A stretch of DNA of 64,000 nt from Schizosaccharomyces osmophilus (lineage: Eukaryota): positions 4,216,001 to 4,280,000 of the forward strand of contig NC_079238.1 in the NCBI RefSeq assembly GCF_027921745.1, in the 5' to 3' direction. Position numbers and translations under genes: made by a program. Under the pieces are notes generated by a model. It had not been told where the DNA came from and made no database searches. It worked only from the letters and a program-made list of their open reading frames with translations. The first letter of the stretch is position 1. The number at the start of each line of letters is the position of its first letter. Shown here piece after piece: positions 61,956-63,026 of this stretch.

Positions 61956-63026
61956 ATGAAGAATAGTTATGCTCCTGTTTCGAGTTCGGAAGCCTCTCTT
62001 AAAACGCTCAATGATGAAAAGTTAGGCATTCAAACTTCAGATGCCACACCGCCTCCATATTCAGGTAAGAAGTATTTAAGTAGGGAAGAAAATAGAAGTT
62101 GATTAAGTACATGGTAAAAGCTGCCGCATGTTTACGGGACGAATCTTGTTTGTTTGTCTGTTTTGGGACTGATAATTTTGTCGATTGCTATAACATACAT
62201 GGCCAGCGCCTTTATCCTTTTGTATACAACGAAAAGAATTGCTTCTAATAAATCCATTAGATTCATACAAATTCATTGATTTGGAGATGGCTGATGGATC
62301 CGCTCAGACTTCCACTGAAGAATCCGCTAATAAATATAAGAGGGCTTTGGAGAATTTTGTAATCCTATCGTATATTCTGATTTTCGGCTTCTATTTGTCC
62401 TTGGTTTGTTTTTATATACTATTCTTCGTCTACAAGTTTCCTGTGAAAGCGCAAGTCCATTGGGGGCTTTTTGGCGGTTCGATTACATCTGTGATGCTGC
62501 TTCTAGCAGGTAAGACAGCGATGTCCATGTTTTGAACGACTGACTAACTATTAGATTCAATTGCAATAAATTCAATAAATTCAATAAAGTGTGAAGTATT
62601 GATGGACAATGTGCTTGTCGCAGCATTCCATACAGTTGTTTTCGATGCCTTCTGTTTAGCCTCATCTTTTGGCCTGAAGAAGTACAAAGTGTTTGAAAAT
62701 TTGAACCCTGCTGTTTGCTGGTTGATTTTTATCACAATAAGCACATTCTTATTTCTTGTTTTGACGAGTATGTTGTGTATGACTTAAAAATATTCTAACT
62801 GTTCCAGCAAATCAAAAGGCACGCGAAAGCATGAATTCGAATTTAGTAAGCGGCATAAGCGGTTTAGGAAATGCTTTGTCTTGTACTTTTGGTATGTACT
62901 CTTTGGAGATATTCCTCTCATAATATATTATTAACCTATTTAGAATCGTTCGATGTCCAAGATGAGAGACATTCGAACGAAGAGATCGAACTTCAACCTC
63001 TTGATGACCAAAGAACTGAATTTTGA
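61956..63026 (+). CDS. wtf: Intact wtf-family meiotic driver candidate, 5 exons (61956-62064, 62261-62509, 62555-62767, 62808-62891, 62944-63026), 245 aa
   Basis: The exons sum to 738 nt with no internal stop, and all four introns are GT-AG and phase 1 with branch sites. Protein: MKNSYAPV...TPPPYS/DSYKFIDLEM..., about four hydrophobic segments, SGLGNA, acidic tail EEIELQPL. Confidence 0.85.
62129..62135 (-). promoter_or_regulatory. FLEX core (GTAAACA) inside wtf intron 1
   Basis: TGTTTAC on the + strand, followed by TTGTTTGTTTG, ~150 bp upstream of the in-frame exon-2 ATG at 62287. Confidence 0.6.

Follow-up and report, generated by a model that had tools for sequence, protein, structure and literature searches.

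The annotated five-exon gene SOMG_01944 of Schizosaccharomyces osmophilus: a divergent wtf gene and candidate meiotic driver

The wtf genes of the octosporus/osmophilus/cryophilus type have been described as five-exon genes with a larger intron 1 (PMC9562144). In S. pombe, the PY-dependent mechanism of the antidote has been shown for Cw9, and deubiquitination makes four S. octosporus antidotes toxic (PMC10721834). The poison of S. pombe wtf4 requires a 9-mer FLEX site (PMC9762604). When seven S. octosporus genes were deleted, three drove clearly and two weakly, although all had been pre-chosen for poison expression, and drive correlated with the poison level (PMC9562144). A 5S rDNA context was reported for 33 of the 42 wtf genes of S. 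osmophilus (De Carvalho et al. 2022, PMC9562144). These statements, like the others cited below, apply to the sections and supplementary tables of each paper that were available.

We analyzed a 64,000-nt stretch of S. osmophilus DNA (the window), near the end of which a sequence-only reading had proposed a hidden, intact wtf-like gene with a poison/antidote layout, functional in spore killing and divergent from the S. pombe genes. The published arrangement of five exons and a larger first intron was also seen at this locus.

Structure and published identity of the gene

Spliced by coordinates, the five exons between 61956 and 63026 on the forward strand joined to 738 nt, corresponding to 245 codons and a stop codon, with no internal stop. 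The features of the locus are as follows.

60995..61116, forward strand: dispersed 5S rDNA on the same strand as the gene, 69.2 bits, with a 3-nt insertion relative to the Rfam model
61956..62064, forward strand: exon 1, 109 nt, encoding the N-terminal tail specific to the antidote; the spliced product is identical to P0004
62049..62060, forward strand: PY motif PPPY, residues 32-35
62065..62260, forward strand: intron 1, 196 nt, predicted site of the poison promoter
62261..62509, forward strand: exon 2, 249 nt, hydrophobic helices 1-2
62287, forward strand: ATG of the predicted poison start, Met46, at the 27th base of exon 2
62555..62767, forward strand: exon 3, 213 nt, hydrophobic helices 3-4
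62808..62891, forward strand: exon 4, 84 nt, with a single 7-aa wtf repeat unit at about 62849-62869
62944..63026, forward strand: exon 5, 83 nt including the stop codon, conserved C-terminal tail

The four introns (196, 45, 40, and 52 nt) are all GT..AG and all in phase 1, and branch-like sites lie close to their 3' ends. Splicing, together with identity to a database protein, bore out the intact 245-aa structure that had been read from the letters, and translation did the same for the PY motif in exon 1 and for the in-frame ATG at Met46, from which a 200-aa form without the PY motif would start. Multiple transmembrane helices are predicted for the 245-aa protein: Kyte-Doolittle analysis gave four hydrophobic stretches (about residues 65-98, 106-124, 138-158, and 169-192), with which the helices of an AlphaFold model coincided. 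The model was of low confidence (mean pLDDT 60.7, pTM 0.32), and a Foldseek search against the PDB with it gave no matches at E ≤ 0.001; therefore, no fold was inferred.

A conserved, N-terminally extended isoform, starting at an in-frame ATG at 61722 and adding 78 residues (61722-61955), was considered and rejected. The added stretch is T-rich (42% T) and hydrophobic, and it carries several 1-nt indels across contigs; one of these, at 61923, is in a contig that elsewhere matches the SOMG_01944 copy completely. The 78-codon extension probably arose by chance.

The spliced product was identical in all 245 residues to WBW71765.1/XP_056036008.1 (P0004), annotated as "wtf meiotic driver [S. osmophilus]"; WBW71765.1 was the 245-aa member of the best-match protein cluster. 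With exon 2 alone as the query, the search retrieved two proteins of S. osmophilus that bear the name "wtf meiotic driver". The upstream neighbors were recognized by Pfam as Rpb11 and UreD, and the order rpb11, thioesterase, ure4 agrees with the published table. Table S4 of Jia et al. 2023 lists these three genes followed by SOMG_01944 wtf15 (1071 nt, forward strand), which is described there as "syntenic with wtf14 in CBS 15792" (PMC10085805). The distance from the start of ure4 to that of the wtf gene was 2101 nt both in the window and in that table. De Carvalho et al. 2022 list wtf14 in Supplementary 1c as a 1071-nt, 5S rDNA-flanked gene classed as DRIVER, give 21 nt of repeat for it in Supplementary 1r, and used it among their PSI-BLAST queries (PMC9562144). 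Their FIMO match for wtf14, 191-201 nt from the start codon, falls exactly at 62147-62157 of the window, whereas the match for wtf21, the second 1071-nt gene in Supplementary 1c, has a different offset. As judged from length, neighbors, spacing, FLEX-like offset, 5S, and repeat, through which accession and locus tag were linked, the gene is SOMG_01944, that is, wtf15 of Jia et al. and wtf14 of De Carvalho et al.

Set against the published wtf14, the locus has the same 1071-nt span, neighbors, spacing, FLEX-like offset, upstream 5S, and 21-nt repeat, and no difference came to light. For wtf14 a downstream 5S is listed as well, which is not contained in the 974 nt that remain in the window after the gene. 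The gene is thus not hidden, as had been supposed, but annotated and present in two published catalogues (Jia 2023 and De Carvalho 2022), and its structure and predicted role are already in print and not new. A search of paper texts with the locus tag found no paper, and the open literature searched contained no poison-transcript, toxicity, or drive data for SOMG_01944.

The upstream 5S rDNA sits 840 nt from the gene. Besides its 3-nt insertion, this copy carries further changes relative to the Rfam model and to other contigs, and it may be decaying. No second 5S was found downstream up to the window end (974 nt), where many contigs with other letters pile up on the flank (63027-64000), consistent with a repeated wtf-to-5S spacer. 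Elsewhere in the window, two tRNA genes were observed at 42739-42810 and 43188-43259.

Splicing was examined in contigs from five sequencing runs, which cover part of the stretch; none of the runs is recorded as RNA, and such contigs cannot reveal start sites or absence. One contig of run X3, which has paralogue letters, lacks precisely the 196 nt of intron 1 (GT..AG), and in contigs of run X4 introns 2 and 3 (45 and 40 nt) are skipped at their predicted GT..AG ends. A loose end in X3 at 62891 runs on into exon-5-like letters. At the residues checked, the letters of the intron-skipping contigs match the paralogues P0001 and P0003, and the X3 and X4 contigs leave the 3' half of intron 1 uncovered. 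These contigs support the junctions for a four-copy clade described below, but not for the SOMG_01944 copy itself. Contig joints 62063-62509 and 62115-62317 were also observed in runs X1-X3, and the annotated protein P0005 (176 aa) has no second Met; judging from these sequences, there seem to be paralogues from which exon 2 or a part of intron 1 is missing.

Family membership, close paralogues, and a truncated relative

With the closest paralogue as the query, 67 proteins were found at E ≤ 0.1, and every one belonged to S. osmophilus, S. octosporus, or S. cryophilus. Outside S. osmophilus, the best match was SOCG_04480, which is the proven driver wtf25 of S. octosporus. An N-terminal PY motif was present in 68 of 69 homologues and a second Met at positions 44-48 in 66 of them. 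Across the 61 aligned rows, P33 and Y35 were invariant, as were K2, K22, and K40 of the N-terminal tail; the invariant lysines would fit a ubiquitination model without proving it. Profile A1, made from 61 of the 69 homologues, was run against 1.84 billion proteins and returned 17 at E ≤ 0.001, all from Schizosaccharomyces, of which 12 were already in the homologue set and five were additional. The profile reached S. pombe Cw23 at E = 2e-4, and Cw23 scores 1e-69 on the Pfam WTF model.

The Pfam WTF model (PF03303) itself gave no match for P0004, for P0001 and P0002, or for six exon-frame pieces. This model had been suggested as a check on the spliced protein, which falls below its curated cut-off. 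However, the proven driver Wtf25, taken as a control, also has no Pfam WTF match, and the missing match is therefore uninformative. Pfam WTF was the commonest weak match among the 61 homologues (14 at E ≤ 1, best 1.4e-4), and the model seems tailored to S. pombe. The missing match, for the exon pieces as for the whole protein, is what would favor non-coding or pseudogene DNA spliced together by chance. The five-exon gene is not such a product of chance, because its translation equals an annotated database protein and contigs that exactly skip the introns exist for close paralogues; the frame is also uninterrupted, and the 67 homologues have already refuted this explanation as to homology. We give it hardly any probability. 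By contrast, it is virtually certain that the gene is a member of the wtf family of the octosporus/osmophilus/cryophilus type: wtf identity and the poison/antidote layout, as first proposed, held up on the 100% protein identity, the 67 homologues, and the profile match to Cw23.

A quick tree was made from 61 rows, eight short or partial ones of the 69 being left out (P0005, P0051, P0054-56, and P0067-69). In it, SOMG_01944 and three paralogues formed one S. osmophilus clade (support 100) on a branch of 1.62 changes per column. The paralogues P0001, P0003, and P0002 are 94, 91, and 82% identical to the SOMG_01944 product and carry two, two, and four exon-4 repeat units, respectively, compared with one in SOMG_01944; scattered substitutions accompany the difference in repeat number. 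Over the poison part, two of them are identical at 182/200 and 191/200 positions (91-96%). From the identities in Supplementary 1e, P0001, P0003, and P0002 are probably wtf8, wtf22, and wtf39 of De Carvalho et al., in whose published identity matrix the four-copy clade is already apparent (PMC9562144). A repeat mismatch has been reported to break poison-antidote compatibility (PMC11892871, PMC9562144), and variation in repeat number among paralogues as close as these (82-94%) is as expected for diversifying drivers.

The long branch (support 100, quick tree) and the strongly diverged membrane core could also be those of a host membrane protein co-opted for a non-selfish role, as in S. pombe wtf genes of the "unknown class". 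However, the gene occurs in several copies confined to one species, not as a conserved single copy, and its PY motif, Met46, exon-4 repeat, and 5S context are all retained. In the available parts of their paper, De Carvalho et al. found no candidate outside S. pombe like the unknown class (PMC9562144). Co-option is improbable.

A second wtf-related gene was found in the window. In a tblastn search with the 69 homologues, 178 matches were obtained, and the eight outside the main locus all lay at 33186 on the minus strand, where the following gene is located.

33186-33012, 32891-32676, and 32626-32583, reverse strand: the three exons of SOMG_01931, the first two ending in phase 1

Its 144-aa product has PPPY, two hydrophobic segments, and no Met at the usual poison position, and the gene has no 5S neighbor. 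Its exon 1 is 100% identical to the 144-aa "hypothetical protein" SOMG_01931. Against a Wtf profile, SOMG_01931 gave a local match of 23.2 bits and an hhalign probability of 96.4; it was not among the 17 proteins from the profile A1 search. Its 1:1 syntenic orthologue is S. octosporus SOCG_02304 (52% identity), with an exon 2 of 216 nt in both species, and the start of SOCG_02304 is the position that De Carvalho et al. give for S. octosporus wtf18. In the sections available, those authors describe wtf18 as a lineage-specific pseudogene for which no S. osmophilus counterpart was found (PMC9562144), and SOMG_01931 does not appear in the published S. osmophilus wtf table consulted. Because its orthologue coincides with wtf18, SOMG_01931 is apparently a syntenic truncated wtf derivative missed by the published catalogue. 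The frame is open in both species, which hints at a retained gene, possibly antidote-like or domesticated.

The predicted poison form and its transcription

In the mechanism proposed from tested relatives, the 245-aa form would come from a long transcript and would bind ligases of the Rsp5/NEDD4 family (Pub1/Pub3 in S. pombe) through its PY motif. Once ubiquitinated, this antidote would leave the Golgi for the endosome and vacuole and would hence be harmless. A meiotic transcript from intron 1 would yield the 200-aa Met46 form without the PY motif, which would be toxic to all spores. Spores inheriting the gene would make the antidote, which would co-assemble with the poison and carry it to the vacuole, and non-carriers would die. 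The step with the intron-1 transcript and the toxic 200-aa form is the least secure.

The sequence-only reading had placed a FLEX core in intron 1. Two sites were found there.

62129..62135, reverse strand: FLEX 7-mer core GTAAACA, with two mismatches to the 9-mer and three to the 11-mer
62147..62157, reverse strand: FLEX-like 11-mer with two mismatches, at the same offset as the non-confident FIMO match of wtf14 (p = 1.2e-5)

The 7-mer core is therefore present as claimed, but it is weak and common: it occurs 29 times in the 64-kb window, compared with 11 in shuffles, and about 0.09 copies would be expected per 196 nt. Intron 1 contains no copy of the full 9-mer and none of the 11-mer, the best 11-mer having two mismatches. 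The cutoff for a confident FLEX in De Carvalho et al. 2022 was 3e-6, which the wtf14 match misses, and according to the supplementary data available a confident FLEX occurs in none of 31 intact S. osmophilus wtf genes (PMC9562144). Among the S. octosporus genes without a confident FLEX, 14 of 28 still make a short transcript (PMC9562144). The missing full FLEX weakens but does not remove the case for a poison, which survives because no intact S. osmophilus gene passes the cutoff and because the 14 S. octosporus genes make short transcripts without the site. Outside intron 1, better FLEX matches were observed at 61367-61377 (forward strand), 61236-61246 (reverse strand), and 63448-63458 (forward strand); they include a 1-mismatch 11-mer that lies upstream of the ATG by about 590 nt, with full 9-mers both upstream and downstream.

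The lack of a full FLEX in intron 1 also speaks for the possibility that the gene is intact but non-driving, its poison form being barely transcribed or non-toxic, so that it is neutral or acts solely as an antidote to the poisons that its three close paralogues make. Only half of the S. octosporus genes without a confident FLEX make the short transcript, and drive tracks the poison level. Three ATGs precede Met46 within intron 1, and two of these are not in frame. Two S. osmophilus poisons, wtf19 and wtf41, have been tested in the published sections available, and that of wtf19 was non-toxic, so that one of two was toxic (PMC9562144, PMC11892871). On the other hand, Met46 and its surrounding context are retained, a confident FLEX is missing species-wide and not in this gene alone, and a recent expansion has brought the clade to four copies that vary in repeat number. 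We regard a non-driving gene as quite conceivable, although somewhat less than an even chance. That SOMG_01944 is a single-gene poison-antidote meiotic driver appears, by analogy with the described genes, marginally better than an even bet, and we put active drive at about evens. The paralogues that are 91-96% identical over the poison part might neutralize its poison.

More speculatively, the clade could form a separate poison-antidote specificity group, in which the wtf head and tail are kept and the membrane core is largely replaced. Its poison, made without a canonical Mei4 site, would kill spores, and its members would escape each other's antidotes through the exon-4 repeat number. We consider this proposal rather unlikely.

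Comparison with described wtf drivers

As a discovery, SOMG_01944 is of little weight, its structure and predicted role having been published, but the analysis indicates that a five-exon selfish gene can be rebuilt from raw sequence alone. The divergent clade provides a natural system for testing how much alteration the Wtf membrane core tolerates without loss of toxicity, and how the poison is transcribed in a species whose wtf genes are without a confident FLEX.

The S. octosporus driver wtf25 (SOCG_04480) resembles SOMG_01944 in its five exons, its single PY motif, and the position of its poison start (base 27 of exon 2). The two products are identical at 40/60 positions in the head, 38/135 (28%) in the membrane core, and 21/50 in the tail. 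Because the core is only 28% identical, toxicity is not transferable from Wtf25 by similarity. Unlike SOMG_01944, wtf25 has a perfect FLEX in intron 1 and no 5S neighbor, and 33 short-transcript reads have been reported for it (PMC9562144).

The S. pombe wtf drivers (wtf4, cw9; Pfam PF03303) share the poison/antidote layout, the PY-dependent antidote, and a late-exon repeat. The divergence from S. pombe that had been proposed for the gene was confirmed by Supplementary 1e of De Carvalho et al., in which identity to the SOMG_01944 product is about 9-13% (PMC9562144). The S. pombe genes have two antidote-specific PY motifs compared with one in SOMG_01944 (PMC10721834), are linked to LTRs rather than to 5S rDNA (PMC9562144), and, in contrast to SOMG_01944, carry a full FLEX in intron 1 (PMC9762604).
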